Origin: Patescibacteria group bacterium
GTDB lineage: Bacteria; Patescibacteriota; Patescibacteriia; 2-12-FULL-57-11
DNA: 64,000 bases
Assembly (NCBI GenBank): GCA_004297205.1
Contig: SCUL01000002.1
Span: forward strand, 77,156 to 141,155
Reading direction: 5' to 3'
The position numbers were made by a program, and so were the translations under genes. How positions within the stretch are numbered: the first letter of the stretch is position 1; each line of letters begins with the position of its first letter. Shown piece after piece: positions 6,112 to 45,815 of this stretch. The notes beneath the pieces were generated by a model. That model ran no database searches, was not told the origin of the DNA, and was given only the letters and a program-made list of their open reading frames with translations.

Positions 6112-6118
6112 AGATCCA

Positions 6119-13011: not shown

Positions 13012-13414
13012 GGATGAAGTACGATTGATCGCCGTCTTTAAGCGTGAACGTTCCGTCCATGACCGGCCGGAGCGATCCCGAAGGAAAGACGATTTCCGTG
13101 AGGCCGGAGAGGGTAACGGGGCCCGGCAGATCGGTGGTCACGTCCTTGCTCGGGACGCGCGTCGCGTAGGTCGTGCCCGCGAAACGCACGACGTGATCCG
13201 TGAACACCGCGACCCCGTGCGCCTGATCGTCGGTTTGCGTGAAGGCGTCCGATCGCGCTTGGGCGATCTCCGCCGCAACGGTCTCCGCGGCGGCGGCCAA
13301 CCGTTGCGTGCTCAGGAAGGCGAAGGACAACGTGGCGCCGAGTCCCGCGAGCATGAGCATGAGCGCGAGCACGACGGTCGTTTCGATGAGGGTGAAGCCG
13401 CGCATGCCCGTCAA
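12965..13414 (-). CDS. prepilin-type N-terminal cleavage/methylation domain protein (pseudopilin, GspH/FimT-like size)
   Basis: MTGMRGFTLIETTVVLALMLMLAGLG is the canonical class III signal. Confidence 0.75.
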   Translation of the reverse strand: MTGMRGFTLIETTVVLALMLMLAGLGATLSFAFLSTQRLAAAAETVAAEIAQARSDAFTQTDDQAHGVAVFTDHVVRFAGTTYATRVPSKDVTTDLPGPVTLSGLTEIVFPSGSLRPVMDGTFTLKDGDQSYFIHVSPYGVVEWEKGTE

Positions 13415-25598: not shown

Positions 25599-27350
25599 TC
25601 AGGAACGCTTGGCAACACCGAAGATCCACAAGTGCTTTTCCATCCAGCGGCCGGCCAGCGCCCGCAGGAAGGTACGGGTCACGATGATGGCCGTGAACAT
25701 GGACACCAGGATGCCGATGGCCAGCGTGACGGCGAAACCTTTGACGAGCGAGGTGCCCAGCCAGGCCAGGATGGCGCAGGTGATGAGCGAGGAGGCGTTG
25801 GAGTCGCGGATCGACAGCCAAGCGCGGCGGAAGCCTTCATCCATGGCGTCGCGGATGGCCTTCCCGCTCCGCAATTCCTCCTTCATGCGTTCGAAAATCA
25901 GGATGTTGGCGTCCACGGCCATGCCCAGCGACAAGATGAACCCGGCGATGCCGGCCAGGGTCAGCGTCACGCCGATCATCTTGAACACCGCCAAGGTCAG
26001 CGCGGCGTAGACGACGAGCGCCACCGTGGCCACGACGCCCAGGAAGCGGTAGATGACGAACATGAACAGCGCCACGACGGCGAAGCCGAGCAGCCCGGCC
26101 ATCAGCGACTTGGCGAGCGACTCCGCGCCGAGCGACGCGCCGACCGTCTGCTGGTTGACCAGCGTGATCGGCACCGGCAGGGCGCCGGCGTTCAGGTTGC
26201 GCACCATCTGCTTGGCTTCCGGAATGGTGTACCGGCCGGTGATGACGGCTTCGCCCACCAGGATTTCCTGCTGGACCACCGGATCCGACAGCAGCACGCC
26301 GTCCAGGAAGATGGCGACCGGTTTGCCGACGTTCCGTTTGGTGATTTCGCCGAACAGCTTCGTCCCCTCGTCGTTGAACTGAAGGCCGATCTGGACGACG
26401 CCGGTCTGTTGGTCGAACAGGACGTTGGCGCGGCGCAGATGGGCGCCGGTGAGTCCGCTGTTTTTCCACTGTTCAGGTGGCACGATGTCTGTCTCCGCCA
26501 GCTTCTTGAACAGGATGTGGCTGGCGCGGTACTCGGGTACGGTGGAAGTGGCCGTGGTGCCGTCGGACAGCTCGAGCTCCGGACCGGCCGCTTCGCGCTC
26601 CCCGGTCTTTTTGATGATGTGGTAGCCGAAGGCGGTCGCCACCGGCGTCTTGCTGATCTCGTCCACCTTCAACGCGGCCACGGCGGTTTCGAATTCGGGC
26701 ACGGTGGTGCCGGCGGTGAACCAGTCGAGGTCGCCGCCGTTGTCCTTGCTGCCCGGGTCGTCGGACAGTTCCTTGGCCAGCGCGGCAAAGTCGGCGCCGG
26801 GCTCCCGCACGCGCTTCAAGGCGTCCTGCGCTTTCTTCTTGGCTTCGGCGTCGCTGTCGGCAAGCTGTTTCTTTTCCTCGGCGGTCAGCGGGCGGGCCGG
26901 TTCCGTGCTGACTTCCTTGAACTCCAACAGCGGCGTTTCGCCGATCTGGCGGATGGCCTCATTCACGTCCAGGATGCCGGCCAGGTCCACGATCAGGCGG
27001 TACTTGTCGCCGACGATCGCGGTCTGCACCAACGGTTCGGACACGCCAAAGGCGTTGACGCGCCGCTCGATCACCTCGCGCAGACCATTGAGCTGTTCGC
27101 GGCGGTCGGCTTCCGGCACGCTCTGCATGTCGGCCTCGTAGACGAGGTGGGAGCCGCCTTGAAGGTCGAGACCGAGCCGGAAGGCCTTGGTCGGGAACTC
27201 CGGCAACGGACCGCGGATGCGGTTCCAGACGGAGGGATCCACGAACAGGCCGGCCAGCGCGCCGACAACGAGGAGCAAAAGCGCGACCCAGCGCAGGCGG
27301 GCCGCCGGGGCGCGGAACAGCATGCCGAGGGGGTTGGAGGGAGTGGCCAT
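25599..27350 (-). CDS. secD: protein translocase subunit SecD with an inserted parvulin-type (PpiC) peptidyl-prolyl isomerase domain in the periplasmic P1 region
   Basis: SecD TM and P1 motifs are present (...[28 protein letters not shown]...[13 protein letters not shown]...). An inserted segment of about 100 aa reads ...[63 protein letters not shown], the parvulin signature. Start ATG 27350. Confidence 0.85.
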
Positions 27351-27589
27351 AACGGGCGGAATGGTACCCGAGCCGAACCGGGAGGCGCAAGGGTCGTCCC
27401 GGCCGTCCCCTTGCCTTCCTCCGGGGTCTGTGGGCATGCTGGACCCAAGACCCCCACCGCGTGCGGCGTTGCACCCCCCTCTTGGCAACGCCGACGTCGC
27501 GGTGGCGGTCCCCCCTTAGCGGGACGTTGGTCGCTCGGACGTCCTTTACCCGTGTGTATCGTCCGCCCCCCCAGACGATGCCGGGCGCT

Positions 27590-27715: not shown

Positions 27716-28219
27716 ATGAAAAAATATCTGCCGATCTTGGCCGCGGTCCTGTTGCTCGGTGCGGGCTGCGCGTCTCCCGCAACTCCGTCCACGAACGCGC
27801 CGCGGGCGGCAGCCGATCCGGAGCCGCGGTGCGATGCCCTCTTGACCCTCGCTGAAGCGCAGCAGGTTTCCGGTCTTGCCTATGCCGTGCGTGATGCGAA
27901 AGCAACGACGATGGGCACAACCGTCGTGACCACCTGCACTTTTTACACCAACGAACGGACCACGGGCATCAAGCCCTTTACCATCCTGACGCGCTCCGCC
28001 GCATCGACTGTGGAAGTCAATGAAATCTTCGAAGCGAGCAAAACCGCCACCTATACCGATGGACAGCCGATCTCCGGCCTCGGCGACCAGGCGCTGTGGT
28101 CTCCGTCTTTCGGCCAGCTGTCGGTTCTGCGAGGTCAAACGTGGTTGATTGTGACTGCAACCAATAACCGGGTTCTTGCAACGAAGATCGCCGAGGCCCT
28201 CGCCCCGAAGCTCAAGTAA
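27716..28219 (+). CDS. lipoprotein, hypothetical (167 aa)
   Basis: MKKYLPILAAVLLLGAGC signal peptide with a canonical lipobox. TTGGCA-18-TACCAT promoter-like sequence at about 27659-27690. Confidence 0.7.
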   Translation: MKKYLPILAAVLLLGAGCASPATPSTNAPRAAADPEPRCDALLTLAEAQQVSGLAYAVRDAKATTMGTTVVTTCTFYTNERTTGIKPFTILTRSAASTVEVNEIFEASKTATYTDGQPISGLGDQALWSPSFGQLSVLRGQTWLIVTATNNRVLATKIAEALAPKLK

Positions 28220-28844
28220 GCGGCACGTCTCCCGCGACTTCTCCAAAAAAATCCTGGTGACGTGACTCGACGTGAGCCGCAAGTTCTTCGAGGTAGGCGA
28301 GCAGTTCTGGTTGACCGGCCATCTTGCTGCGCTTCAGGGCAAGCACCTCCTCGAACGCCAGTCCGTGTTTCTTCCAGATGCGACCGCCGTCCGCGGTCGT
28401 CGCAAGCATCGGTTCCAACTTGTCGAGCGCGTAAATGAAGCGGCTTTCCGGATCCTCGCGGCGCTCGTAGGCGGCAATGGCGTCGTGGAGGTCGGGAAAT
28501 TCTGAAAACTCCCTGCGCAGCCGTTCCGCCGCTGCGTGTTCACTCGCCGATTTCTCGGCCCGGGCCTTGGCGTCCTTCGTGTAGGCGAAAACGTCGCCGG
28601 CGTAAACCTCAACAAGGTCATGAATAAGCGCGTACCGCAACACCTTGTCCTGATCCAGCGGCAGCTTCAATGTCGAGACCGTATACCACGCCAACATGGC
28701 CAGTGAATAGCTGTGCTCGACGTCGTTTTCCAAACGCTCCTCGCCGATGATGAAAATCTCGCGGATCACGCGCCGGTAGGCGGTGAGCATCGCATAGAAT
28801 CGCTGGAGCTCGGGGAGGCCGGCCATACGTTCAGGATGTGACAT
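28212..28844 (-). CDS. HD-domain phosphohydrolase (YfbR-like 5'-deoxynucleotidase family)
   Basis: H...HD motif (...VEHSYSLAMLAWY...ALIHDLVEVYAGD...). The track ORF is 5' extended across the PPC gene. Start is Met at 28844, or 28826. Confidence 0.7.
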   Translation of the reverse strand: MSHPERMAGLPELQRFYAMLTAYRRVIREIFIIGEERLENDVEHSYSLAMLAWYTVSTLKLPLDQDKVLRYALIHDLVEVYAGDVFAYTKDAKARAEKSASEHAAAERLRREFSEFPDLHDAIAAYERREDPESRFIYALDKLEPMLATTADGGRIWKKHGLAFEEVLALKRSKMAGQPELLAYLEELAAHVESRHQDFFGEVAGDVPLT

Positions 28845-29235
28845 GGAATTCGGGAAAACCCGTTGCCTCGTCATGAATCCGACGATACACGACGTCGTCG
28901 AAGATGCCGAACACAACCTCGGCCGTGGTATCCACAACGCAGCCGTCCTTGAGGTGGCCGCCGATAACGGCACCGTCCTTGTCCGAAAGGCTGACGTGGA
29001 TGTGACAGCCGTCCGCGGCGATCGTTCCGGTTCCGGAAACGATTTCGAGCGGTCCCGCGATCGTACGGACGATTTGCGCGTCCGGCGTGGCGCCGGCCAT
29101 CCGCAAAACCGCCGTGCGCACCCCGCCGACCAGGGACAACAACACGCCCGCGCCGATCCTTCGTTCACGGGCGATGCGTTCGATCTCTTCCTTCAGCAGT
29201 TGTCCCGGCCGGAGCCGGAAGGAAATCTGTTTCAT
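28831..29235 (-). CDS. PPC domain protein (DUF296; PCC/AT-hook-associated fold)
   Basis: 134 aa with G-rich beta-strand pattern ...GAGVLLSLVGGVRTAVLR...GPLEIVSGTGTIA...HIHVSL... Its ATG overlaps the TGA of upstream DUF1653 (ATGA). Confidence 0.7.
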   Translation of the reverse strand: MKQISFRLRPGQLLKEEIERIARERRIGAGVLLSLVGGVRTAVLRMAGATPDAQIVRTIAGPLEIVSGTGTIAADGCHIHVSLSDKDGAVIGGHLKDGCVVDTTAEVVFGIFDDVVYRRIHDEATGFPEFHVTS

Positions 29236-29498
29236 ACCTCACGCACCCAGGCGAACCGCGGGCCTTTGTACTCCCCCACTTCGACGTGCTCGAGGAACAT
29301 GCCGAGCGGTCGGATCCAATACAGACCCGGATCGATCAACGACTAGTACACCACGAACTCCTGCGCCGGGTCCTCGCTGCTGCGCCCGACGAACCGCGCA
29401 TGATACACGCCGCCTTTGTAGTGGCGGTAGATGCCGGGGCGGAACCGTTGCGCGGCGTCGGAGAGCGGCGGGAGATCGGGGGACATGCCGATGCTCAT
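29232..29498 (-). pseudogene. DUF1653 family gene interrupted by an in-frame TAG (amber) at 29343-29345
   Basis: Frame from ATG 29498 reads MSIGMSPDLPPLSDAAQRFRPGIYRHYKGGVYHARFVGRSSEDPAQEFVVY*SLIDPGLYWIRPLGMFLEHVEVGEYKGPRFAWVREV*. Both halves match DUF1653 (YRHYKGG.Y ... Y..RPL.MFLE). Both ends are coupled to neighbours by ATGA overlaps. Confidence 0.6.
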
Positions 29499-30493
29499 CT
29501 CAGTGCATTAATCCTATCCCTGCTCATTTCTATCTGTTTTTCTCTTTCTTTCTCGTTTCTTTCCCAGATAGCAGACAATGTTTCCTTCACGTGACCGATG
29601 TTTTGACGCTGCACGACGTTACTGATCACGGAACCGGACGGATATTCAACAAAAACCGTCAAGGTATTGAACACCACCTGCCCGGATCTTGGGGTGAACA
29701 ATTGTTTATGAAGCTCGGGCGAACGCATGTGTACTCGTTCCTCAACCGACCGAAACGCGGCTTTCAGGTCTTCCTGATTCCCTAAAATGTCGAGGTGTTT
29801 CACGGCTTTGCCCGTCAATGCCGTCCCTGAAACCATCGGCAGAATACGGCGTTCAAGCGCCCAGTCAATTACCTCACCGGCATCATCGGCGTTGTCTTTG
29901 TACACCATGATGGAAACACCCATTCTCGTGAATCCGTTTTTATCCGGTTTGTTGAATCCGGCATCGATCATGGCACGTATCGCCTCATCTCTTTTTTCCG
30001 CATATTTCTTAACACCGGAGATTCTGTTCTCTTTTTCGGGGTCAAAACTATTCACTTTCACGACGAAGGAAACGGGATACTCCCTTAATTTTTCAATTGC
30101 GGTCGCATTCAATAGAGCGCCGTTCGTAAATACCGTGACATGCAGATCCAGCTCTCTGGCTTTTTCGAGAAGCGGCCAAATCTCTTTATTTGAAAAGGGC
30201 TCGCCGTGGCCCGCCAACAACAGATTCGTAATCCCGAGATTCTTTGCTTCCTCCAACAATTCAACGCTTTTTGCGACATCAACCGATTGTTGCGTCTTTT
30301 CTCTGTACGCATCGGTAAAACAATACACGCAGTTCAAATTACACTTCTCTCGTGGAAAGGAAATACTCAGCTGCAGGGGCCTATCGCGTTCCCAGGCTCG
30401 TTCAATGTCCTCGATGTCAAAATCAATTCCTTTCAGCTTGATGGGCTCGGGTTTCTCTACCTCCGGACTCGGAAAATATTCTCCAGATCTCAT
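29495..30493 (-). CDS. radical SAM protein (CxxxCxxC; function unknown)
   Basis: CNLNCVYCF cluster and GHGEPF glycine-rich SAM motif. 332 aa. No SPASM or twitch Cys cluster seen. Local GC is clearly lower than surrounding genes. Confidence 0.75.
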   Translation of the reverse strand: MRSGEYFPSPEVEKPEPIKLKGIDFDIEDIERAWERDRPLQLSISFPREKCNLNCVYCFTDAYREKTQQSVDVAKSVELLEEAKNLGITNLLLAGHGEPFSNKEIWPLLEKARELDLHVTVFTNGALLNATAIEKLREYPVSFVVKVNSFDPEKENRISGVKKYAEKRDEAIRAMIDAGFNKPDKNGFTRMGVSIMVYKDNADDAGEVIDWALERRILPMVSGTALTGKAVKHLDILGNQEDLKAAFRSVEERVHMRSPELHKQLFTPRSGQVVFNTLTVFVEYPSGSVISNVVQRQNIGHVKETLSAIWERNEKEREKQIEMSRDRINALR

Positions 30494-30518: not shown

Positions 30519-31445
30519 TCATACCGGAATCTTTACCTTGGCAAGCTGCGACTCACGGATCGACAGGCCGAGGAACAACGCGAGCAGCAGGACGGTGTTG
30601 AGCGGCGCGACCCAGAAGCCGAACTCGCGTCCGAAACTTTCCAGCACCATCAGGCCGCCAAGCATGCCGATGGAATACATGGCGCCGTTCTTGAGATAGG
30701 CGAACTTGGAAATGACATCGATGCCGCGCACCGTCACCTCGCGGACGACGAGCGCGCCGATGCCGTTGCCGATCAGGATGAGCACCACGGACAGCGTGAA
30801 GGCGAAGGCGCCGATCACGCCGTCGATGGAGAACGACGCGTCGAGCACTTCGAGGTACAGCAGTTTGCTCCAGGCGCTCAGATGCGCGGTGTGCAGTTTC
30901 TTCTCCGTCTCCTCGGCGTTGCGCCGGAAACCGTCGGTCACGAAGAAGGCCGTGGCGCCGATGGAGGCGGACAGCGCCAGGATGGGATTCTCGCGCACCG
31001 CCAGGGCGATGACCTTGGTGATGAAAATCGAGGCGAAGGCGTAGAACCAGACGCTCTGGCGGTGGATGAAGTGCTCGACAAAGAAGGCGTACTTCTTCTC
31101 CTCCATGAACAGCCAGCCGAGAAAAACGAAGACGAGGTAGACGCCGCCGGCCAGCAGCAACAACGGCTTGGAATGCTCAAGCGCCGCACTGACCTTGTCC
31201 GGTTCCGTGAACACCAGACGCATCAGCTCCGGCAGCGGGATGTTGGTATTGGCAAGCCAGACAATGAGGAACGGCAGCACGCCGCGCACCACGAACACGG
31301 CCAAGAGCAGCCCCCAGAACAGGAAAAACTTCCGGTACTTCTCCGGCAGGGTCTTCAGGACGTGGGCGTTGACGATGGCGTTGTCGACCGAGCTGATGAC
31401 CTCGAAGACGACCAGCCCGAAGATGACGACGAGGGATTGCAGCAT
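30519..31445 (-). CDS. DUF475 family integral membrane protein
   Basis: MLQSLVVIFGLVVFEVISSVDNAIV... N-terminus and ...SFSIDGVIGAFAFT... are typical of DUF475. About 8 TM helices. Confidence 0.65.
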   Translation of the reverse strand: MLQSLVVIFGLVVFEVISSVDNAIVNAHVLKTLPEKYRKFFLFWGLLLAVFVVRGVLPFLIVWLANTNIPLPELMRLVFTEPDKVSAALEHSKPLLLLAGGVYLVFVFLGWLFMEEKKYAFFVEHFIHRQSVWFYAFASIFITKVIALAVRENPILALSASIGATAFFVTDGFRRNAEETEKKLHTAHLSAWSKLLYLEVLDASFSIDGVIGAFAFTLSVVLILIGNGIGALVVREVTVRGIDVISKFAYLKNGAMYSIGMLGGLMVLESFGREFGFWVAPLNTVLLLALFLGLSIRESQLAKVKIPV

Positions 31446-31446: not shown

Positions 31447-32022
31447 TCAGCCTTGTGCCTTCAGGATCTCGTCGAGCAGCACCGGCAGCTCGGTCACGCC
31501 ATCGTCCCCTGAGAAATGCCCCATCTCTTCGAGGATGATCGTTTTGGCACCGAGCTTATTACGCATCGCGACTTCGTTCTCCAACGGCACGTAGCGGTCG
31601 TTGTCGGAAAAAATCGCCTCGATCCGGCCTGCGGCGCGTTTTGCACGCTCGGTGTCGAGCGGCGTCCGCAACCACTCCGCGGCGATCGGCCGTTCTTCAT
31701 CGCTGTCCGCATTCGTCAGGTGGTTGAGGAACCCCGCCACGAGATAGGCGCCGCCGACGCGTTGATCGTCCGAAAGGTCGGCGAGGTACCGCAAGATTGC
31801 CTGACAGCCCATGCTGTGCCCGACCAAGATTGTCTCCTCGTCCGCCGTGCCGACAACGGTCGCAAGAAACGGCACCCAGGTGCCGATGCGCGGCGTGTCG
31901 GTCTCCGGCATCTCCGGTGCTTCCACGGCGAACCCGCGGGATTCGAGTTCCCGCTTCAACCACGGGAACCAGCCATGCTCAGGTGTTCCGCTCCAGCCGT
32001 GGATCAGGAAAGCGCGTTTCAT
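31447..32022 (-). CDS. alpha/beta hydrolase, RBBP9/YdeN-like serine hydrolase family
   Basis: About 190 aa, MKRAFLIHGWSGTPEHGWFPWL... with a GHSMG nucleophile motif, matching the family. Confidence 0.75.
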   Translation of the reverse strand: MKRAFLIHGWSGTPEHGWFPWLKRELESRGFAVEAPEMPETDTPRIGTWVPFLATVVGTADEETILVGHSMGCQAILRYLADLSDDQRVGGAYLVAGFLNHLTNADSDEERPIAAEWLRTPLDTERAKRAAGRIEAIFSDNDRYVPLENEVAMRNKLGAKTIILEEMGHFSGDDGVTELPVLLDEILKAQG

Positions 32023-32378: not shown

Positions 32379-32756
32379 TCAGGGCCTCCCCTGTTCGAAC
32401 TCTCCATAATCTTGCAGGAGCTCCTCTCCGGCCTCGATGTCTCTGACGGCGACAAGCCGATACTCGGGCGCACCGGCGTCAACCGTGATGTTCCCGACGT
32501 CCGCATGGTTGCAGAAGCGGATGTCATCGAACGCTAGATGCCAGGTGCCATCGTTGAAGTATCCGTAATGACGGATCTGTTTCTGGGAAAAAACATCCAG
32601 CTTCTGGAAATCGGCATCGGAAATATCAACGTCCAAATTCGAACTCATTTTGTACACCAACGAACCCTTGGCGACGCGTTGATCGGCAAAAAGACCGATG
32701 CCGTGTACGGGACTTTTCTCCAGTCGTGTTTTGACGAAAAGCATATGAGAGATCAC
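32379..32756 (-). CDS. SET domain protein (putative protein-lysine methyltransferase), 125 aa
   Basis: GIGLFA...KGSLV N-terminal SET motif. ...RFCNHADVGNITV... (the NHSCxPN equivalent). ...VAVRDIEAGEELLQDYGE... is post-SET-like. ATG overlaps the ASCH TGA. Confidence 0.65.
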   Translation of the reverse strand: MISHMLFVKTRLEKSPVHGIGLFADQRVAKGSLVYKMSSNLDVDISDADFQKLDVFSQKQIRHYGYFNDGTWHLAFDDIRFCNHADVGNITVDAGAPEYRLVAVRDIEAGEELLQDYGEFEQGRP

Positions 32757-33082
32757 GGCCCCCGCAACTCGAAGGTGATCATCTTCACGGGCGTGTCCAA
32801 CGTCACCCGGTCGCCGTAATACTTCTTGTATGCCTCGAACATCTTTTTGCTGCTTTCAAACCGCTCATGCCCGACAAAATCCGCATCCGTGATCCCGCCG
32901 AGGCGCTTCTCCTTGATGGCCGTGATACGCGCCGACGCAAACTCTTCTCCGGTGGACTTATTCACAAGCGAAAGCTCATCGCCGACACGGAGATCCTTGT
33001 CATCAAACATCCGCCAGGTGGATTTCTTCTCACCAGACAGCACCAACGGCACGAGATGGTCGAACAACTTGAGGGTCTTCAT
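32753..33082 (-). CDS. ASCH domain protein (PUA-like fold), 109 aa
   Basis: MKTLKLFDHLVPLVLSGEKKSTWR... is the typical ASCH N-terminus. ATG 33082 overlaps the HD gene TGA (ATGA). Confidence 0.7.
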   Translation of the reverse strand: MKTLKLFDHLVPLVLSGEKKSTWRMFDDKDLRVGDELSLVNKSTGEEFASARITAIKEKRLGGITDADFVGHERFESSKKMFEAYKKYYGDRVTLDTPVKMITFELRGP

Positions 33083-33699
33083 TCTTTTTTCCAGGCGCGC
33101 GTTTCCTGCGCGCGGTCGACGAACCATTGGTCGGAGGCGTCGAACCACCAGGCATCCGGGTGCGTGGCGAGCATCCGCTCCCCCAGTTTCCTGCCGGCGT
33201 CGGTCTTCAGCCGTTTCACGGCAATGGCGATCCACTCGGTGGCTTTGATGTTCCCTTTCACCTCCTCGGCGCGCAGTGTGGCGATCCACTCCAGGTTGTC
33301 GGCATCCTTGACGATCTTCGCTTCCAGGGTCTCCTTGGCCTGTTCTTCCGTGTACAGGTCGGCGATCTCCTTCCCAAAGGGAACGCTCGCCGCAATGTCG
33401 GCGACGGCGTGCCCTTCGGCAAGGCGACCGTACCGCTGATGGATGTAGTTCAGGTCCGACGTCCTGCCTTCGCCCAAGTCATGCACGAGCGCCATGAGCA
33501 CGACCTTGTTCTTGTCGACGCGCGGCTCGAGGTGGCACAGCGCGTAGGCGATGAGCGCCGTGTGGAAGAGGTGCTCGGCCACCGACTGGCTGCCGCTGCC
33601 CAAAAACCACAACCCCGAGCGCGGCGTCTTGCTGTGGATGCTCGTTTCGTACACGAAGTTCGTGATCTGATCAAGCGGGTCTTTTTTTGCGTCAGGCAT
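33079..33699 (-). CDS. HD-domain phosphohydrolase (YfbR-like 5'-nucleotidase family)
   Basis: ...AEHLFHTALIAYAL...LMALVHDLGEGRTSD... carries the H..HD..D motifs. 206 aa. Confidence 0.75.
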   Translation of the reverse strand: MPDAKKDPLDQITNFVYETSIHSKTPRSGLWFLGSGSQSVAEHLFHTALIAYALCHLEPRVDKNKVVLMALVHDLGEGRTSDLNYIHQRYGRLAEGHAVADIAASVPFGKEIADLYTEEQAKETLEAKIVKDADNLEWIATLRAEEVKGNIKATEWIAIAVKRLKTDAGRKLGERMLATHPDAWWFDASDQWFVDRAQETRAWKKE

Positions 33700-33736
33700 A
33701 AATCATTTGTCATTCTGAGGGGCAGCGAAGAATCCT

Positions 33737-34411
33737 TCAAGCTGGATCCTGGAAGTGCTGCTGCCTCTTTCCCATATCGAGCGCCCAGATCTCTTTTTGC
33801 TCGCGGTAAATCACGTACAACAAACCGACGAATGCCGCGCCCAGCGTATACGGCAGGGCGAACACGAGGTTCGTTTTTCCAAAGGCGATCAGCAGCGTAT
33901 TGATCAGGATGAACAGCAGGCGGACTTCGGTCGGACCGATGCCGAGATGCGAGATGCGGAATTTGTTCGTCGCGGCCATCACCAAATAGGCGTTGACCAT
34001 GTAGCCGGCAAAGAGCGCGAACACGAAAAAGAAGACCCACTTGGATTTGTCGGGCAACAGGATCATGTACCCCACCATCAACGCGGCCAGAAAAAAGTAA
34101 TCGAGCAGGTGGTCCATGTAGTAGCCCCAGCGGACGAGTCCGGTCTTGCGCAGGCGGCCGACCGCGCCGTCCAAAGAGTCGGTCAGCCACTGCAGGGCGA
34201 TCATCGCCGACATGCCCCACAGCCAGCGGATGTCGTCCACCGCCAAAAAGCTGAAAAGCACGAGCAGTCCGCAAATCGGGATGGTCGCGAGCGTCAGGTG
34301 GTACGTTTCGACGGGCTTGGGAACTTTCGTCACCGCCCATTCCACAAAACGCCGCTCCAATGGATGCAGCAGCGACGCGCCTACTTTCTTATCTCCGGAA
34401 AAAGTTTCCAT
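33737..34411 (-). CDS. CDP-alcohol phosphatidyltransferase family protein
   Basis: D-G-x2-A-R-x8-G-x3-D-x3-D motif (DSLDGAVGRLRKTGLVRWGYYMDHLLD). 5-6 TM helices. Confidence 0.8.
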   Translation of the reverse strand: METFSGDKKVGASLLHPLERRFVEWAVTKVPKPVETYHLTLATIPICGLLVLFSFLAVDDIRWLWGMSAMIALQWLTDSLDGAVGRLRKTGLVRWGYYMDHLLDYFFLAALMVGYMILLPDKSKWVFFFVFALFAGYMVNAYLVMAATNKFRISHLGIGPTEVRLLFILINTLLIAFGKTNLVFALPYTLGAAFVGLLYVIYREQKEIWALDMGKRQQHFQDPA

Positions 34412-34417
34412 TGGTCG

Positions 34418-34804
34418 TTACGACAACCCCTTCTCCCGGTATTCCTTCTTGATCTGCCAATACATGCTCTCCGTGCCCGGCTCCTCCGTCCGGTTGCGCA
34501 TCAGCTCCGCCGGATACTTCTTGGCCACGTGCGCCAGCTTTTCACGAACGATCTGTTCGGTGTCGAGATTCAGCAGCACGGACATCTCCAATGCGTAGAT
34601 CAGCACGTCAGCAAGCTCTTTTTTGATCTGCTGCACCTTCTCCGGATTCTTGCGCACGTCTTCGAGCGACAGGTTTTCCCACTGGAACAATTCCAACAAC
34701 TCCGCGCCTTCGATCATGATCGACTTGGCGATATCAACCGGACGCAGGGTGTCCCAACGTCGGTCCTTGAGGTGTTGATAAACGTCTTTCTCGAGGTCCT
34801 TCAT
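34418..34804 (-). CDS. MazG-like nucleotide pyrophosphohydrolase (all-alpha NTP-PPase)
   Basis: EExxE-type metal motifs (EGAELLELF; ELADVLIYALE). 128 aa. Confidence 0.75.
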   Translation of the reverse strand: MKDLEKDVYQHLKDRRWDTLRPVDIAKSIMIEGAELLELFQWENLSLEDVRKNPEKVQQIKKELADVLIYALEMSVLLNLDTEQIVREKLAHVAKKYPAELMRNRTEEPGTESMYWQIKKEYREKGLS

Positions 34805-34962
34805 ACGGGATTCAGGGTGCCACCACGGGGTCTTGACAGCAAGCTGGTTCTATGACAGGCGCAGGCCGGGTGATTCAATACACCTGCTCGCGGGAGGGTT
34901 GGCATCCTTCCGGCTCCCATCGGGGCTACCATACCCTCTTTGGGCGACCGAGCGTACCCGCC

Positions 34963-35029
34963 ACCCGTCGGATTCAGACGCTGTGTTCACGCATTGCGTC
35001 TGATGCAGCTCCGACGGGTTCTTTTATTT
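34963..35029 (+). terminator. nested-hairpin rho-independent terminator on the + strand (also abutting the stop of the convergent 35024 gene)
   Basis: Outer stem ACCCGTCGG...CCGACGGGT and inner stem TCAGACGC...GCGTCTGA, followed by TCTTTTATTTCC. There is no + strand CDS upstream. Confidence 0.45.
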
Positions 35030-35605
35030 CCGCAGCTCGCGGTCGAATGCAAGAAAGTCCTTAAGGATTTCCGCGGTGGGTTTCTCCGCATCGAGGACTT
35101 TGGACTTCAAACCGTACCCCGTGGCGCAGCGGTTGAACTCGGCTTCGTACTTTGCGATGTAGTCGTCGAGGATGGCGCGGCGCTCCTCCGGCGTGGCTCC
35201 GTCCGGAAACAGCGCACGGTCGCGCTTGTGCTGGTCGGCTTCGATGCGGCGCAGCACGGTGTCCGTCGAAATACGCAGCAGCAAGATGGCGTCGAATCCG
35301 GCGATGCCGCTTCCGGCGATGGGAAAGACGTCACCGCGGACGATGTTGAGGTAATGGCCGTCGAATACAACGTCACCCGGGCGAGAGGTGATGTTCGTCA
35401 GCATTTCCTGAAACTTCCGGTCCGCATCGTCATTGTGGCTCAGTTTACGCAACGCGTCGTAATCACCGGGGATACCGAGGTAGTCCATGAAGGCGTGCGA
35501 CCCCTTGATGATTTCGAAACCAGGTGCCGCTTCTTTGATCGCATGCAGTAACGTCGTCTTCCCCGCCCCGTTGATGCCGCCGAGGTAGTACTTCATCATT
35601 GTCAT
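35024..35605 (-). CDS. P-loop NTPase / nucleotide-kinase-like protein
   Basis: Walker A GGINGAGKTT and lid-like R-rich segment. 193 aa. ATG overlaps the ppa stop. Confidence 0.6.
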   Translation of the reverse strand: MTMMKYYLGGINGAGKTTLLHAIKEAAPGFEIIKGSHAFMDYLGIPGDYDALRKLSHNDDADRKFQEMLTNITSRPGDVVFDGHYLNIVRGDVFPIAGSGIAGFDAILLLRISTDTVLRRIEADQHKRDRALFPDGATPEERRAILDDYIAKYEAEFNRCATGYGLKSKVLDAEKPTAEILKDFLAFDRELRK

Positions 35606-36060
35606 TCCCGCGGAGGCGGGGATCCAGAAATATCTGTGGACTGCTGCACGAGAGCAACTGCTTCATCCTTGCCGAAGAATTGACCAACCACGAGCTTTTT
35701 CCCTGGCAGGTGATCAAAAACGTGTGCAATGAAATTGCGAAGCTCGGTCTGAACACGCTCGTCAACAATGGGAGATTCTCCAGGAAGCGTTGCGAGTATC
35801 TTTGGATCGTTCTCACCCGTGTCGTCCATCTCGAACATGCCGATCGGTTCGACATCGATTGTCTCCCCGCTCTTGAGCGGCTTCGCCGTCAACACGAAGC
35901 AGTCGAGATTGTCTCCGTCGCCGCTCGTGGTGCCGATCACGAAGCCGTAGGCGTAGGGATAGGCCCGTGAGACCTCGACACTCTTACGGAACTCCAACGT
36001 CTTCTCATTGAAGATGTTCTTAGTCCGCGATCCGCGCTCGTTTTCGATGAAAACCTTCAT
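35602..36060 (-). CDS. ppa: inorganic pyrophosphatase (family I, short)
   Basis: ...YPYAYGFVIGTTSGDGDNLDCFVL... matches the YPxNYGFIPxT...DGDPLDVLV signature. Confidence 0.75.
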   Translation of the reverse strand: MKVFIENERGSRTKNIFNEKTLEFRKSVEVSRAYPYAYGFVIGTTSGDGDNLDCFVLTAKPLKSGETIDVEPIGMFEMDDTGENDPKILATLPGESPIVDERVQTELRNFIAHVFDHLPGKKLVVGQFFGKDEAVALVQQSTDISGSPPPRE

Positions 36061-36061
36061 G
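36032..36061. repeat. direct repeat copy A (covers the ppa start codon): CCGCGCTCGTTTTCGATGAAAACCTTCATG
   Basis: 28/30 identical to copy B at 37267-37296. Confidence 0.6.
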
Positions 36062-36503
36062 AAGGATCCTTCACTGCCGTTCGGGATGACAGGTAGGTGC
36101 GCACTCCTTCAAGAATGCCGCTGGTGAAATACTTCTCCAGATTCGAGGGGTCGACACGTAGCCACGCAGAACCTTCGTGTTCATGACTGAGCATCGGTTC
36201 ACCGCTTTCGTAATCACCGATGAAAAACACGTAGAGGATGGCGTCGCCATTTTTGGTCACATGGCGACCGATTGCCACAGGCGCAGGATGGAGACGATAC
36301 CGCACCTCACCGATCTCTTCCTGCACTTCGCGATTCAAGACGTCATGGAACGGCGCAGCGAGCTCATCGATATGGATGCGCCCGCCCGGAAAATCGTAGA
36401 AACCCGAATACTCACCGGTGTTTCTGGCAAGCAGGCCGAGCACCTCGTCGCCGCGGCGCAAGATGAGTTTCAACGAGACCCAATATTTTGCTTTCTCGGC
36501 CAT
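36057..36503 (-). CDS. Nudix hydrolase
   Basis: Nudix box GGRIHIDELAAPFHDVLNREVQEEIGE. True start ATG 36503 (MAEKAKYW...); the track ORF is 5' extended. Confidence 0.8.
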   Translation of the reverse strand: MAEKAKYWVSLKLILRRGDEVLGLLARNTGEYSGFYDFPGGRIHIDELAAPFHDVLNREVQEEIGEVRYRLHPAPVAIGRHVTKNGDAILYVFFIGDYESGEPMLSHEHEGSAWLRVDPSNLEKYFTSGILEGVRTYLSSRTAVKDPS

Positions 36504-36622
36504 AGATGTCAGGAATACTACCTGGAGGTGCGGGGAATTGCACCCCGGGCAGCCATCCTGGCAAGGAAAGCGCCGCGCCTGCCACCCCCAGGTTCCTTCA
36601 TCGTAGCCCTGAACCGGGACAT

Positions 36623-36651
36623 TGACCGGCCACACACTTTTCTGCTATTGT
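36623..36651 (+). promoter_or_regulatory. sigma70-like promoter (TTGACC-17-TATTGT) driving a short + strand transcript with no ORF
   Basis: -35 at 36623-36628 and -10 at 36646-36651 in an otherwise gene-free 225-nt gap. Confidence 0.35.
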
Positions 36652-36657
36652 CAAGAG

Positions 36658-36720
36658 GTCCTGGCAAGGATTGCACCGTACGCGAGCACAAACCGCCCTA
36701 CATGGGGGCGGTTTGTTTTT
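36658..36720 (+). ncRNA. candidate small RNA of about 60 nt (promoter plus intrinsic terminator, no ORF)
   Basis: The predicted TSS is about 6 nt downstream of the -10. The transcript ggtcctggcaaggattgcaccgtacgcgagcac ends in the AAACCGCCCtacatGGGGGCGGTTT-GTTTTT terminator. It contains motifs (TCCTGGCAAGGA, TTGCACC) that repeat 60-100 nt upstream. Confidence 0.3.
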
Positions 36721-36721
36721 G
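36688..36721 (+). terminator. rho-independent terminator
   Basis: AAACCGCCC-tacat-GGGGGCGGTTT followed by GTTTTTG. Confidence 0.6.
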
Positions 36722-36730
36722 AAGACAGAT

Positions 36731-37243
36731 TTAGGCCTCTATTGCCGTTTTTACACGTTCGACAACCTCGTCAGGTGAAAGGTCTTCCACGTCGATGATA
36801 GTTGCATGCGGTCGTTTTGCCTTCAGCTCATTCATCTCGTTCCAAAAACGTTCGCACTTCTCCGGCGTCAATAGACCATCTTCTCTGTATCCGCGATCAG
36901 CCGCGCGTTTCAAAACAACATCCTTGCTTGCCCAAAGAATGACTTCCGTCACATGCGCGTTCCGCTGCTTGGCGAGCGCGATCATGCGATCAAGTCGCGT
37001 CTCATCGAACATCATTTTTTCCACGATTACATCATGACCGGTCTGCATGTAGGCGTCGATCATCGCCAGCACGAGCAAAAAAGAAAACCGGTTACTTTCA
37101 TCTGCGTGTTCTCTGTATCCACTGATCTGTCTGCGAATGGCATCGATGTCAACAAGAAGCGAAAGCGGCATCGTCTGATGCAGAGCGGATGCCACGGTAC
37201 TCTTTCCTACGCCACAAGGCCCGTTGATGATCACGAGATTCAT
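36731..37243 (-). CDS. P-loop kinase-like protein (chloramphenicol-phosphotransferase / AAA_33-like fold)
   Basis: MNLVIINGPCGVGKSTVASAL Walker A at the extreme N-terminus. 170 aa. Lower GC (about 50%). Confidence 0.65.
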   Translation of the reverse strand: MNLVIINGPCGVGKSTVASALHQTMPLSLLVDIDAIRRQISGYREHADESNRFSFLLVLAMIDAYMQTGHDVIVEKMMFDETRLDRMIALAKQRNAHVTEVILWASKDVVLKRAADRGYREDGLLTPEKCERFWNEMNELKAKRPHATIIDVEDLSPDEVVERVKTAIEA

Positions 37244-37266
37244 ATAGCCCCAGCTTCTATCACGAC

Positions 37267-37296
37267 CCGCGTTCTTTTTCGATGAAAACCTTCATG
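37267..37296. repeat. direct repeat copy B: CCGCGTTCTTTTTCGATGAAAACCTTCATG, encoding a remnant MKVFIEKERGS* mini-ORF (37260..37295, minus)
   Basis: Duplicates the first 11 codons of ppa. Together with copy A it brackets the 1.2-kb Nudix / sRNA / P-loop kinase segment. Confidence 0.6.
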
Positions 37297-37324
37297 TCTT
37301 TCTGGACTCCCACGGGAATGACCG

Positions 37325-37951
37325 TTACCTGTTCGGCAAAGGAATGACTGTCGCACCGTTGCGATAGGCCTTCATGAACCGTTCCACGGGAACGCGGACG
37401 GAGGGTCGAGGAGGCAGTCCAGGGTCGTGGAGCAGAAGTTCGCCGCCATCGACGCCGTACAGGAGGACCGAGTGACCAATGCCTCTTTCCCTTTCATGCA
37501 GCACGCCAGAATCCACGAAGGCGATCACATAATGCGCTGCAAGAATATCTTTCCAATCGCTTGCGGAAGGATTCCGACGCTCCACCAGCTGCGCCTCGAC
37601 CATCCGCTGAGCGTCGCGCATTTCTTTTTCAAAACCCGGACTTGCATGCGCCTCCTGGTCGTCGACCCATGCCACATCACCGTGAAAGTAGCTCAGCAGG
37701 TAGGCACGTCCTTCACGGCAAAAGCGACCGTAATCGAAATCCGTCCAATAGCGCGTGCCGGGAAACAGCGTGTTCAATTCAATGATGCTCCGCGCAGGCC
37801 ACGTGTACAGGTCTTTCTGGAATCCCGTGATTGCGTCGGCCTCCGCCCAGGATATCGGGCGACCGATCGTTTCACCGAACATCCGAATGCAGGCCTGCAA
37901 ACAATGCAGGTCGTCCGACAGATTCCCGATGAAGATTGGTTCACGCGCCAT
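37325..37951 (-). CDS. hypothetical protein, possible papain-like (C39-like) cysteine peptidase fold
   Basis: Cys near the N-terminus (LHCLQAC), later GHSVLLYG and HDP, consistent with a Cys-His-Asp triad order. Weak assignment. Lower GC. Confidence 0.4.
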   Translation of the reverse strand: MAREPIFIGNLSDDLHCLQACIRMFGETIGRPISWAEADAITGFQKDLYTWPARSIIELNTLFPGTRYWTDFDYGRFCREGRAYLLSYFHGDVAWVDDQEAHASPGFEKEMRDAQRMVEAQLVERRNPSASDWKDILAAHYVIAFVDSGVLHERERGIGHSVLLYGVDGGELLLHDPGLPPRPSVRVPVERFMKAYRNGATVIPLPNR

Positions 37952-38006
37952 GGCACGTTTTCAGGTCAATCTGGATTCCCGCCTATTGGTGGGCAGGCAC
38001 TGGCAT

Positions 38007-38381
38007 TCAAAATGACCTTGTTGGGTCATAGTCCTGACCACCGACGACAATATCACCAAAACCCTTCTCTTTCGCCCACTTCACAATGCGTACACGACGC
38101 GGATCGTCCGGCTCTTCAAAGCCGTTTGTGAATGAAATGATTAGACCGCGGTAAGGATCGTACTTGTACCTGATTCCCTGCGACCCATCCCAAACCATCG
38201 GCGTAGCATGGCGCTGGGCGATTTCCGAGGTCATCATTTCGTAAGTCACCAAATCGTCACACACCCGAAATCCTTCTTGACGAAGAAATTCGACAATCGC
38301 CACAAGCCTATCGAAATCGGCGCGCTGCTTCTGCTCGCGTGCATCGATTGCTTCTGGATTCTGTCCAGACCGCTCAGACAT
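38007..38381 (-). CDS. hypothetical protein (124 aa)
   Basis: Start ATG 38381 (MSERSGQ...) lies 1 nt after the secA stop. No family recognised. Confidence 0.45.
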   Translation of the reverse strand: MSERSGQNPEAIDAREQKQRADFDRLVAIVEFLRQEGFRVCDDLVTYEMMTSEIAQRHATPMVWDGSQGIRYKYDPYRGLIISFTNGFEEPDDPRRVRIVKWAKEKGFGDIVVGGQDYDPTRSF

Positions 38382-38382
38382 A

Positions 38383-41181
<2,799 letters not shown>

Positions 41182-41254
41182 ACGGAACGGGGAAATCCTA
41201 CGGGAAAAAGCAAAACAAAACAAGGCCTCCCCCTGTGGCAGCATGGTTCTGAAA

Positions 41255-41578
41255 TCAGGCCAATCCCGTGTGCGTCTCGAGCCGCTCGATGCGTGATTCG
41301 TGCCTCTTCAGCCACTCTGTGGCGGCAAACCATTCCTCGTCAAGAAGCTTGAATTGACCAACGAGAAAATCAAGGGCGTTCATCATTTTCCTCTGATCCT
41401 CCTTGGTGAAGACATTCTCCTCAAGCCATTTCAATCGATCTTCATGGCCGTCAGCCAAATCATACAAACGACCCACCTGCCGACGAATTTCGGAGGTATC
41501 TTTTCGGATTTCACGAACGTCGACCTGAAGTTCGCTCACGTCGGTCCTGATTGTCTTTATCGTCTCCTCCTGATTCAT
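41255..41578 (-). CDS. small coiled-coil protein, paralog A (ends [12 protein letters not shown])
   Basis: 107 aa, [13 protein letters not shown]... Charged heptad pattern. Paralogous to 52400..52630 at both the protein and the nucleotide level. Confidence 0.5.
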
Positions 41579-41654
41579 ACACAACCATGATACGAACGAA
41601 CGCCGCCTTGCACCAGGCAGCGTCCGTGTCAAGTACCGCCCCCACCTCCCCCGA

Positions 41655-41675
41655 CCCCTCCTTGTCAAGGAGGGG
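41655..41675. repeat. perfect palindrome CCCCTCCTTG-t-CAAGGAGGGG (intergenic)
   Basis: Same family as the palindrome inside uvrC at 63332-63350 (C-run TTG n CAA G-run). Confidence 0.6.
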
Positions 41676-41759
41676 TGAGAATCCTGCTTGCAGATAAAAA
41701 AGGGACCGCGCAGCGTCAGCTGGCGGCCTTTGCCGACGAAACGGCCGATGTGACGCGGA

Positions 41760-42029
41760 TCAGGGCCGATCAGCGGAGAGCGCTCGTGAGACCCATGAAA
41801 AGCTGAGCCGGAGCACGACGATGAGAGGCAGGCAGACGAGCACCGCCGGCCACAGCAGGGCCACCACCCCCACAGCGACCACCCGCGTCGAACCTTCGCA
41901 CTCCCAACCGATCTGTTCGGGTGCGAATTCCTCCCAGAACCACGAGCCGATGGCACCCCCGACCGCCAAGTAAACGATCAACACCAATGGCCCGAAGTAT
42001 GCGAGTACCCCGATGATTGCGTAGTCCAT
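41760..42029 (-). CDS. small membrane protein (89 aa, 2-3 TM)
   Basis: Start MDYAIIGVLAYFG... with a GGAGG RBS. The track ORF is 5' extended. Confidence 0.45.
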   Translation of the reverse strand: MDYAIIGVLAYFGPLVLIVYLAVGGAIGSWFWEEFAPEQIGWECEGSTRVVAVGVVALLWPAVLVCLPLIVVLRLSFSWVSRALSADRP

Positions 42030-44973: not shown

Positions 44974-45717
44974 CTACCGGGTCCAGTCGAACCCGATCTC
45001 CTCGTAGATGTTCTTGACCGCGCCCACCGGATCCTTGGCCTGCGTGATCTGCCGGCCCATGATGATGTTCGTGGCGCCGCTGGCGACGGCGTGTGCGGGC
45101 GTCCCGATGCGGTACTGATCGTGCGGGTCGGCGCCCGGGGAACGCACCCCCGGCGTTGCCGTATTCGGCTTCTGCGTCCACGAGACGATCTTCACCAAGT
45201 CGAGGTCCTGCGGCGAACAGATCAGGCACGGTCGCCGGGGATCCTTGAGCCCCTTGAAGGCCTTTTCCGTCAGCAGGAAGAAGCGGTGCTGCTGCTCGTT
45301 CGGGCGGCGGTCGAAGACGAGGCTGCAGTCGTCCTCCTCCATCGTCGTCAACACGCCGACCACGTAGATGTCGACCTCCTCCGGCGCCCCGTCGCAGGCG
45401 GCGCGGATGCCGGCGATGCCCGAAGCGGCCATCACCGTCATCATGTCCGCCCCAGCCTCGGCCAGGTACGCGGCCGTCTCCTTCATCACGTCCGGCGTGT
45501 TGTGGATCTTCGTGTCCGCGAAGATCCGGCCCCCGCCGGTCTCGGTCTTCATCCACCCGAGCATCTCGGGGCCGCATCCCTTGCGGAACAGCACCGAGCC
45601 CAGCTTCCAACCGCCGAGCTTCAGGTCGCGCAGGGCGTGGGCGAGACGCAAGATGTCGCTGCGCCCCATCTGGTCCGCCGCGATGATCAGCGGACTCCTT
45701 CGAATCGCAATGGTCAC
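44974..45717 (-). CDS. pyrF: orotidine 5'-phosphate decarboxylase
   Basis: ...LIIAADQ...FADTKIHNTPDVM... (the K.HDIPNT equivalent) ...ATNIIMGRQI... Start is GTG 45717, preceded by GGAGG. Confidence 0.8.
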   Translation of the reverse strand: MTIAIRRSPLIIAADQMGRSDILRLAHALRDLKLGGWKLGSVLFRKGCGPEMLGWMKTETGGGRIFADTKIHNTPDVMKETAAYLAEAGADMMTVMAASGIAGIRAACDGAPEEVDIYVVGVLTTMEEDDCSLVFDRRPNEQQHRFFLLTEKAFKGLKDPRRPCLICSPQDLDLVKIVSWTQKPNTATPGVRSPGADPHDQYRIGTPAHAVASGATNIIMGRQITQAKDPVGAVKNIYEEIGFDWTR

Positions 45718-45815
45718 GAGTACCTCCTCGCCGCCGAACCTACGCCCGTTGACGCGCCGGGTCAAGCGCCCCCTTCATCAATCACCGCGCCTGCGCTACA
45801 CTGCGCCGCGACCCT

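Follow-up and report, generated by a model that had tools for sequence, protein, structure and literature searches.

Minimal mobile elements and intergenic mosaic elements of Neisseria are based upon REP/dRS3 repeats and place different gene sets between conserved flanks. Integron cassette arrays, as well as attC clusters without an integrase, comprise short genes arranged in one direction with repeats at their junctions. A third described system consists of the house-cleaning enzymes, such as MazG/DCTPP1, Nudix/MutT, Ham1/ITPase, family I inorganic pyrophosphatase (PPase), and the YfbR-type HD 5'-nucleotidases, with the concept of the house-cleaning nucleoside triphosphate (NTP) pyrophosphatase reportedly dating to Galperin and colleagues in 2006. 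Here, we report on a block of small genes located at positions 33737-38393 of a 64-kb stretch of contig SCUL01000002.1 from a Patescibacteria group bacterium (the entire stretch is referred to as the window), which resembles each of these systems in part. The GC content of the window is 63.4% and nearly all of its genes are encoded on the minus strand. The original prediction for this DNA had proposed either a nucleotide salvage and house-cleaning gene set or a horizontally acquired island such as a defense module. From the comparison with related genomes, we now consider it likely that secA and secD of a high-GC clade of Patescibacteria enclose an array of small genes, mostly independent of one another, which is specific to this lineage and reshuffles quickly, and that the block forms the part of it nearest to secA.

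The array occupies the interval of 27.5-38.4 kb (~11 kb) between secA and secD and contains ~19 small genes, all in one direction. Its two ends and the genes of the block are listed below from secA toward secD, with protein lengths in amino acids (aa), open reading frames abbreviated as ORF, and the GC content at third codon positions abbreviated as GC3.

38383-41244, minus strand: secA, which anchors the array on its upstream side and is conserved (SecA search; 100% identical to a Patescibacteria SecA at NCBI)
38007-38393, minus strand: small protein of 128 aa (from the ORF, which extends to 38459); GC3 0.527, the minimum of the block
37325-37951, minus strand: papain-like (C39-like) cysteine peptidase, 208 aa (invariant triad and AlphaFold/Foldseek)
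36731-37243, minus strand: kin2, an AAA_33/Zeta/CPT-like P-loop kinase, 170 aa (Pfam); GC3 0.556
36057-36503, minus strand: Nudix hydrolase, 148 aa from the ATG at 36503 (Pfam PF00293, 27.1 bits, cutoff 21.1); GC3 0.617
35602-36060, minus strand: family I PPase, short form, 152 aa (Pfam PF00719, 75 bits, cutoff 23.5); GC3 0.654
35024-35605, minus strand: kin1, an AAA_17 P-loop kinase, 193 aa (Pfam; AlphaFold model with a predicted local distance difference test score, pLDDT, of 84)
34418-34804, minus strand: MazG-like all-alpha NTP pyrophosphohydrolase, 128 aa (Pfam PF12643, 38.1 bits, cutoff 27)
33737-34411, minus strand: CDP-alcohol phosphatidyltransferase (CDP-OH), a membrane protein of 224 aa (Pfam PF01066, CDP-OH_P_transf, 35.4 bits, cutoff 22)
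25599-27488, minus strand: secD, the downstream end of the array

The seven gene assignments made originally, including that of a papain-like peptidase, were borne out by the Pfam, PDB, and AlphaFold-Foldseek evidence, and the same range was found to contain an eighth gene besides these (38007-38393, encoding the 128-aa protein).

Relatives of this locus were found by protein search with SecA, which identified L083, L082, and L084 (93%, 84%, and 73% SecA identity, respectively), while further arrays were obtained from L158, L160, L161, and L162 (contigs with peptidase/kin1 homologues). When species-representative genomes were scanned for secA, the best match was 60% identical among the matches listed, and the 80 loci thus obtained gave no more than scattered tblastn matches to the block proteins. 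Upstream of the array, the order SHMT-pyrF-MurC-MurB-HPF-secA is syntenic with the relatives, whereas the content downstream of secA differs. In L082, secA is followed by an unknown gene, PPase, Peptidase_S51, NTPase_I-T, HIT, DUF1653, SET, and TerC, while L083 has DUF6176, an orthologue of kin2, and Ham1. L084 carries ASCH and a different AAA_33 kinase; L160 has secA, another Nudix gene, and a homologue of the peptidase; and L158 contains a Nudix-like gene, a peptidase homologue, S51, and CDP-OH. Two arrays remain, with L161 comprising Cupin, kin1, CYTH, Nudix, NTPase_I-T, and more genes up to secD, and L162 comprising tRNA_edit, SET (72% identical), NTPase_I-T, kin1, Ser_hydrolase (65% identical), DUF1653, and more genes. 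The array genes are thus drawn from a clade-restricted pool, in which orthologues are 60-90% identical between relatives, yet their order and combination differ in every genome examined. Among the block genes, PPase has a positional orthologue in L082 (79% identical), kin2 has one in L083 (88-89% identical), the Nudix gene has an orthologue inside the L161 array (61% identical), and CDP-OH has an orthologue in L158 (88% identical), where it adjoins Peptidase_S51 and the peptidase homologue. Eight homologues of kin1 were found (44-79% identity), with orthologues in the L161 and L162 arrays. The peptidase gene is not present between secA and kin2 in L083, and the gene of the 128-aa protein is missing from L082, L083, and L160. 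The array is a set of independent cassettes and not a pathway operon.

These comparisons bear directly upon the first of the two readings proposed originally. The kind of gene did hold up, as the same enzyme classes recur in the relatives, where Ham1/ITPase, NTPase_I-T, HIT, CYTH, further Nudix genes, and PPase fill the secA-secD interval; a conserved block did not, since it is single genes that recur, and in other orders. A stricter version of this reading would have the block as a conserved housekeeping nucleotide-salvage operon, which is vertically inherited as a unit, is of a type expected where nucleotides are not synthesized de novo, and owes its low GC to weak expression. The enzyme families would suit salvage or house-cleaning, all of the genes are co-directional with both secA and secD, the PPase and kin2 genes are vertically inherited, and the Nudix, PPase, and kin1 genes are translationally coupled. 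Regarding this last point, the numerous ATGA overlaps mentioned in the original prediction do exist as a type, but only two are found in this range (Nudix/PPase at 36057-36060 and PPase/kin1 at 35602-35605). We consider such an operon unlikely, because the block is not conserved: L082 shares its PPase only, with the SET and TerC counterparts both lying outside of the block, while L083 joins secA to DUF6176, kin2, and Ham1 and L084 has its own combination of ASCH and a different kinase. In addition, ongoing rearrangement and decay are indicated by remnants of gene starts and by the probable pseudogene of DUF1653 within the array. The window also encodes pyrF, SHMT, and FolD-type genes, and therefore it cannot be taken for granted that nucleotide-related biosynthesis has been lost completely. 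As for weak expression, MurB, MurC, and pyrF are core genes of modest expression that stay at GC3 values of 0.84-0.92, which rules out weak expression alone as the source of GC3 values of 0.53-0.65.

The composition of the block is unusual nonetheless. For the 46 genes located outside of 27-42 kb, the mean GC3 is 0.844 (standard deviation, sd, 0.045; minimum 0.741). Against this background, the five genes at 35602-38393 have GC3 values of 0.654, 0.617, 0.556, 0.636, and 0.527, which fall 4-7 sd below the mean, and they deviate in codon usage as well (distance B of 0.52-0.69 versus ~0.15-0.45 elsewhere), while the adjacent secA has a GC3 of 0.863. The four genes at 33737-35605 are in the normal range (GC3 0.76-0.79). 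The drop in GC originally described at about 35.6-38.4 kb is therefore real, but it is not limited to this segment, as low GC3 is shared by three genes outside of the block, namely the radical-SAM gene at 29495-30493 (GC 0.47, GC3 0.53), the SET gene at 32379-32756 (0.63), and a gene at 41255-41956 (0.645). Furthermore, in each of the six genomes compared (the window, L082, L083, L084, L161, and L162), the GC3 of the array genes is below that of the core genes. The array GC3 is 0.67-0.77 in L082, with the exception of DUF1653 at 0.85, versus 0.87 for the flanking secA; 0.59 in L083 versus 0.79 for the flanking core; 0.34-0.38 in L084 versus 0.56 for the flanking core; and 0.47-0.82 in L161 versus 0.90 for the flanking secD. 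Uniform GC and synteny of the whole block had been named at the outset as the outcome that would speak against a distinct segment; instead, GC3 dips and the gene order is not conserved. The age of the dip can be estimated from the synonymous divergence (dS) of two positional orthologues. PPase has a dS of 0.92 relative to L082, for which core genes have values of 0.54-0.81, and kin2 has a dS of 0.51 relative to L083, for which core genes have values of 0.49-0.89. Since both genes are positional orthologues with core-like dS, their presence at this locus predates the separation of the lineages, and a recent import does not account for the dip. Thus, the low GC of the block is old. It could stem from old imports out of AT-richer donors followed by slow amelioration, or alternatively from an exchange of cassettes that has continued between members of the clade, whose GC is 50-64%.

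A horizontally acquired island that manipulates (deoxy)NTP pools, as an anti-phage defense or anti-defense module, would also predict a segment of deviating composition, and indeed the dip to GC3 0.53-0.65 versus 0.844 is real and the gene content differs among relatives. Phages commonly carry MazG-like, Nudix, and kinase genes, weak PHROG matches exist here, and the radical-SAM gene of the same array is weakly viperin-like. Moreover, in other contigs a small tRNA-like RNA that is found in the block adjoins a large serine recombinase or an IS1 transposase. Even so, we regard an island or defense module as highly improbable. No integrase or transposase is present among the annotated genes of 25.6-47 kb, ARAGORN found no tRNA or transfer-messenger RNA (tmRNA) gene in the 64 kb, the window contains no second copy of the 3' part of the tRNA-like RNA as an att scar, and the entire low-GC segment is not bracketed by a pair of direct repeats. 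Ten proteins were compared with PADLOC-DB 2.0, PHROGs, and NCBIfam, and none reached a family threshold. The PADLOC matches concern only the P-loop (DndD and PbeC models) or the radical-SAM core (pVip), with no partner genes, while the Nudix match to the candidate system PDC-S07 is just 27 bits. Likewise, the radical-SAM protein scored 52.4 bits versus a cutoff of 180 for the viperin model NF038283, with the match covering only the radical-SAM core, and its nearest solved relative is SuiB. For the peptidase, kin1, and kin2, a scan of viral contigs, which finds close relatives only, returned none. The genes instead come from a clade-restricted pool, with the few homologues of the peptidase and kin1 being confined to the clade; they recur singly and in other orders, rather than being present or absent as a unit; and PPase and kin2 are the positional orthologues with core-like dS described above. 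For want of an integrase, a tRNA gene, a family match, or a viral relative, and with the core-like dS of PPase and kin2, the island proposal made originally was not upheld.

How the array is rearranged is suggested by its junctions, several of which contain elements similar to repetitive extragenic palindromes (REP) or fragments of neighboring genes:

37970-37983, minus strand: half REP-like element GGCGGGAATCCAGA, located 19 nucleotides (nt) upstream of the peptidase start codon (repeat family D1)
37296-37322, minus strand: degenerate REP-like palindrome GTCATTCCCGTGGGAGTCCAGAAAGAC, upstream of kin2 (repeat family D1)
37263-37296, minus strand: remnant of the 5' end of PPase (MKVFIEKERGS*), which is one of the two arms of a direct repeat of 34 nt, directly after the palindrome at 37296-37322
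36690-36715, minus strand: terminator-like hairpin downstream of kin2, read from the sequence, with an equivalent kept in L082
35601-35628, minus strand: REP-like palindrome TCTGGATCCCCGCCTCCGCGGGAATGAC, in which PPase has its final codons and stop and kin1 has its ATG
33706-33742, minus strand: junction linker that is conserved and ends in CTCAGAATGACAA, immediately upstream of the HD gene

The PPase relic at 37263-37296 is 91% identical to the authentic 5' end at 36028-36061, with 20 nt being exact, and the resulting 34-nt direct repeat brackets kin2, its hairpin, the tRNA-like RNA, and the Nudix gene. In L083, kin2 is preceded by a 14-codon relic of the kin1 5' end instead of the PPase relic. 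The REP-like element TCTGGATCCCCGCCTCCGCGGGAATGAC also has copies just downstream of secA in both L082 and L083, in the orientation opposite to that of the window copy, and an additional REP-like copy is located downstream of kin2 in L083. In these two genomes, REP-like palindromes are found at gene junctions at 13104-13131 and 13633-13680 (L082) and at 5107-5134 and 5705-5732 (L083). There is one full copy in the 64-kb window, compared to at least 2 within 1.3 kb in L082 and also in L083. The linker at 33706-33742 is 92% identical to positions 14365-14401 of L082, where it directly follows PPase. As this 37-nt linker follows PPase in L082 and CDP-OH in the window, the kin1-MazG-CDP-OH segment is therefore an insertion or deletion relative to L082. 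Repeat-bearing junctions are thus found in the window, L082, and L083, with two of them also carrying the relic of a neighboring gene's 5' end, and these scars point to repeated local rearrangement at such junctions. Based upon the position of the elements, the turnover of cassettes would occur by recombination at the REP-like elements.

The junction palindrome also connects the array to the Neisseria system. Its form in L082 and L083, ATTCCCGCGGAGGCGGGAATC, differs at 1 base of 21 from the commonest Neisseria meningitidis REP, ATTCCCGCGCAGGCGGGAATC, and in both systems different small gene sets are located between conserved flanks in related genomes. The differences are that the organism carrying the array belongs to another phylum and that only a single full copy is present in the 64 kb. 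The comparison with integrons is similarly mixed. The array is unidirectional with short genes and repeats at its junctions, and the kin2 homology between genomes starts and stops at the coding sequence, yet the junction repeats are REP-like hairpins and no IntI-type integrase is annotated within 25.6-47 kb. Upon inspection of the junction repeats, which was performed without an attC model, no attC core sites were seen either, and hence the array is not assigned to the integrons.

One further component of the block is encoded between kin2 and the Nudix gene:

36519-36594, minus strand: tRNA-like small RNA of ~75 nt (covariance model R1, 72 bits, E value 3.6e-14)

This RNA folds into a 7-bp acceptor-like stem with an invariant G3:U70 pair and an invariant, unpaired A73, a 2-bp D-like hairpin, a central hairpin, and a T arm, and its closing stem runs 3-9 bp past the acceptor. 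The Nudix ORF reaches to 36635, and its initial 44 codons overlap the RNA element. The RNA is conserved in L082 (13799-13875) and L084 (5716-5791), with 100% identity over 29 nt to the latter, the relative with 73% SecA identity, and it is also found twice in L161 (1515-1590 and 3839-3915) and in 21 metagenome contigs (L086-L155). A metagenome scan with the T arm returned two kinds of matches, which were tmRNA 3' ends and ~20 contigs with the same element. In an alignment of 18 sequences, 98% of the cells pair, 16 of the 27 pairs exhibit compensatory changes, and the G:U pair is present in 18/18. The covariation score is 0.52 versus 0.13 for shuffled alignments and ≤0.15 for slid partners, and this applies to an alignment in which helix 1 was partly chosen by our own filter, whereas helices 2 and 3 were unfiltered. 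In the window copy, the central hairpin has apparently been overwritten by a local duplication (repeat family D8). ARAGORN did not call the RNA, and its scores for RF00005 and RF00023 are below the gathering score, such that it is not classed with tRNA or tmRNA. Rfam searches of 26-43 kb together with six RNA-bearing contigs did not reach any family, giving only weak mascRNA-menRNA and tmRNA-end matches, and nothing relevant came up in literature searches on tRNA-like RNAs of the candidate phyla radiation/Patescibacteria. With the tRNA-like domain of tmRNA, the RNA shares the 7-bp acceptor stem, G3:U70, A73, and a T arm identical to those of the scanned tmRNAs, but it has no mRNA-like part, pseudoknots, or encoded CCA, and the weak Rfam matches liken it to the mascRNA-like tRNA-like RNAs as well. 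As a tentative suggestion, which we would not favor over other possibilities, it may represent an undescribed family of Patescibacteria small RNAs that is the stand-alone equivalent of the tmRNA tRNA-like domain; if so, its G3:U70 and A73 would allow recognition by alanyl-tRNA synthetase, or else by SmpB or RNase P, and it may be a processing or recombination landmark of the arrays.

The genes next to this RNA in other genomes include Nudix, SET, secA, and NTP_transf_6 genes, as well as translation genes such as tuf, rpsF, and rplL. A large serine recombinase is encoded 40 nt from the RNA in L092, L117, and L138, and an IS1 transposase is encoded 470 nt away in L100. Since the RNA lies within the array in the window, L082, L084, and L093, and twice in L161, and the content on both sides of it varies among relatives, it could be imagined that the array was built by site-specific integration at the RNA gene and that the low-GC segment is what remains of an integration. 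We think this rather improbable: in the window, L082, L084, and L161 no recombinase is found near the RNA, the window lacks a duplicated 3' fragment of the RNA, the visible scars involve REP-like elements and gene 5' ends, and in other contigs the RNA is located among the translation genes. Some of the RNA-bearing contigs have additional features. In L100, the RNA (3975-4051) is followed by a 92-nt sequence called as tRNA-Stop (tta) (4057-4148), and in L116 it (472-548) is beside a second tRNA-like sequence (549-621). In L117, a small protein encoded at 2396-2770, which is 650 nt from the RNA, has a weak AlaX-type tRNA_SAD match of 20.6 bits that is below the cutoff.

Regarding the products of the block, family membership suggests that they are separate sanitizing or salvage enzymes rather than the steps of a single pathway, and by Pfam and structure they belong to the same superfamilies as the house-cleaning enzymes introduced above. 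In addition, the secA-secD intervals of the relatives carry Ham1, NTPase_I-T, HIT, and CYTH, which are of this type. The differences are that the block proteins miss the NCBIfam equivalog cutoffs and that the PPase is short. The latter belongs with family I PPases, several of which were matched in PDB, and its DGDNLDC sequence aligns opposite DGDPLDA of 4ecp (D-x-D-x-x-D); it missed the NCBIfam equivalogs with 58 versus 200 bits. The MazG-like protein belongs to its superfamily with 4qgp and DCTPP1/RS21-C6 as its nearest solved relatives, and the Nudix hydrolase is a member of its own with MutT-related 3grn as a relative, although its MutT equivalog scores are far below cutoff and its Nudix box, as read from the sequence by us, has a longer spacer than the textbook motif. 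Literature searches on Nudix or salvage in Patescibacteria returned nothing relevant. CDP-OH is assigned by both its PF01066 score and its motif, which reads DSLDGAVGR...GYYMDHLLD with G replacing the A of D-G-x2-A-R, and its PDB relative is CEPT1 (8gyw). The PDB relatives of kin2 are BH3686 (2bdt), 2vli, and PSTK, and a protein identical to kin2 is listed for the source organism only. For kin1, a PDB search gave no sequence-level match to any solved kinase, while the best Foldseek matches of its model are the adenylate kinases of Odinarchaeota (OdinAK) and Sulfolobus, with template modeling (TM) scores of 0.74-0.76 and 19-21% identity, which would give kin1 an archaeal-type adenylate-kinase fold. 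Elsewhere in the window, a guess that the canonical adk is at 8861-9433 beside secY proved wrong, as 8861-9433 has no kinase domain and 9378-10640 encodes a D-Ala-D-Ala carboxypeptidase.

The remaining two proteins are of other types. The 208-aa protein itself has no Pfam match, including PF03412, and just seven homologues are known. Cys17, His160, and Asp176 are invariant across these homologues and two of the seven, both distant, carry Peptidase_C39 (PF03412). Its AlphaFold model (pLDDT 93) was matched by Foldseek to the C39 domains of PCAT1 and ComA, to PeiR, and to a phytochelatin-synthase-like protein. Due to the invariant triad, the C39-bearing homologues, and the fold matches, what had been put forward as a possible papain-like peptidase is now supported as one. 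Like the C39 peptidases PCAT1 and ComA, it has a papain-like fold and a Cys-His-Asp triad (TM score ~0.5 to the query and ~0.7 to the target), but it differs in being a stand-alone protein without an ABC transporter part, in having a helical insert of ~60 residues, and in that no substrate gene is evident. The 128-aa protein has no Pfam, NCBIfam, PADLOC, or PHROG match, and a profile search of Pfam and PDB was likewise empty; 33 representatives were found among 1.84 billion proteins, the nearest with 45% identity.

If the predicted activities are correct, the MazG/DCTPP1-like and Nudix enzymes would hydrolyze non-canonical or surplus nucleotides, and the family I PPase would clear the pyrophosphate they release. 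The YfbR-like HD protein encoded beside the block would dephosphorylate (deoxy)nucleoside monophosphates, kin1 and kin2 could re-phosphorylate nucleotides or other small substrates, and the CDP-alcohol phosphatidyltransferase would make a lipid head group with the release of cytidine monophosphate, while the C39-like peptidase and the 128-aa protein would be unrelated passengers. Expression would presumably be divided among three transcription units, the first consisting of kin2 alone and ending at the hairpin, the second beginning with the tRNA-like RNA and continuing through Nudix-PPase-kin1, which the two ATGA overlaps would couple, and the third comprising MazG-CDP-OH-HD-ASCH-SET after a 218-nt spacer. 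The hairpin at 36690-36715 was not flagged by a consensus scan for promoters and terminators, which yielded no more hits than shuffled sequences and was not used. The spacer between kin1 and the MazG-like gene (34805-35023, minus strand) contains a long hairpin, ACCCGTCGGA...TCCGACGGGT, for which neither an Rfam match nor a counterpart in the fetched relatives was found.

Several points do weigh against our account of the array. The NCBIfam equivalog scores of all block proteins are far below cutoff and their enzyme activities and substrates are predicted; the comparison rests upon ~6 related genomes, which are mostly short contigs; and the role of the REP-like elements in rearrangement is inferred from position, with the window containing one full copy plus relics. 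The persistence of a low GC3 after a dS of 0.5-0.9 is not explained by the array model, and the serine recombinase and IS1 genes beside the tRNA-like RNA elsewhere leave room for site-specific integration here as well.

The rest of the array, between the block and secD, includes the following genes:

33079-33699, minus strand: HD 5'-nucleotidase-like protein, YfbR-like (Pfam)
32753-33082, minus strand: ASCH (Pfam)
32379-32756, minus strand: SET (Pfam)
31447-32022, minus strand: Ser_hydrolase (Pfam)
30519-31445, minus strand: TerC/DUF475 (Pfam), 90% identical to the L082 protein
29495-30493, minus strand: radical SAM (Pfam)
29229-29480, minus strand: probable DUF1653 pseudogene (Pfam), with an in-frame TAG
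28212-29168, minus strand: second HD protein (Pfam)

The TAG of the DUF1653 homologue, which shares 74% identity with the protein of L082, corresponds to CAG in that genome, and it likely marks a pseudogene or else a sequence error. The radical-SAM gene has the lowest GC in the window and is missing at the matching position of L082. Outside of the array, the 233-aa protein encoded at 41255-41956 (minus strand), between HPF and secA, has no Pfam match. Because L082 has two shorter genes at this position with 44-50% identity, the gene is fast-evolving or split. The pyrF gene at 44974-45765 (minus strand), encoding orotidine monophosphate decarboxylase, is only 32% identical to its L082 counterpart (5367-6143), compared to 77-88% for its neighbors, and may have been replaced in place by a distant homologue. 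At the other extreme of composition, a 706-aa ORF at 18810-20930 (minus strand) has an unusually high GC for the window (0.737).

Overall, the array is best explained as a set of old, clade-specific, compositionally distinct, and reshuffled accessory genes, and as a gene set the block itself is ordinary. For the reduced genomes of Patescibacteria, this indicates that a strong GC3 dip combined with variable gene content need not signify a recent island or a defense system, which bears upon how compositional outliers in these genomes are annotated. Two by-products of the analysis would merit further attention: the REP-like palindromes at the cassette junctions, which are near-identical to the Neisseria REP and occur in a very distant phylum, and the tRNA-like RNA, which has alanine-identity features and is included in no RNA family library.

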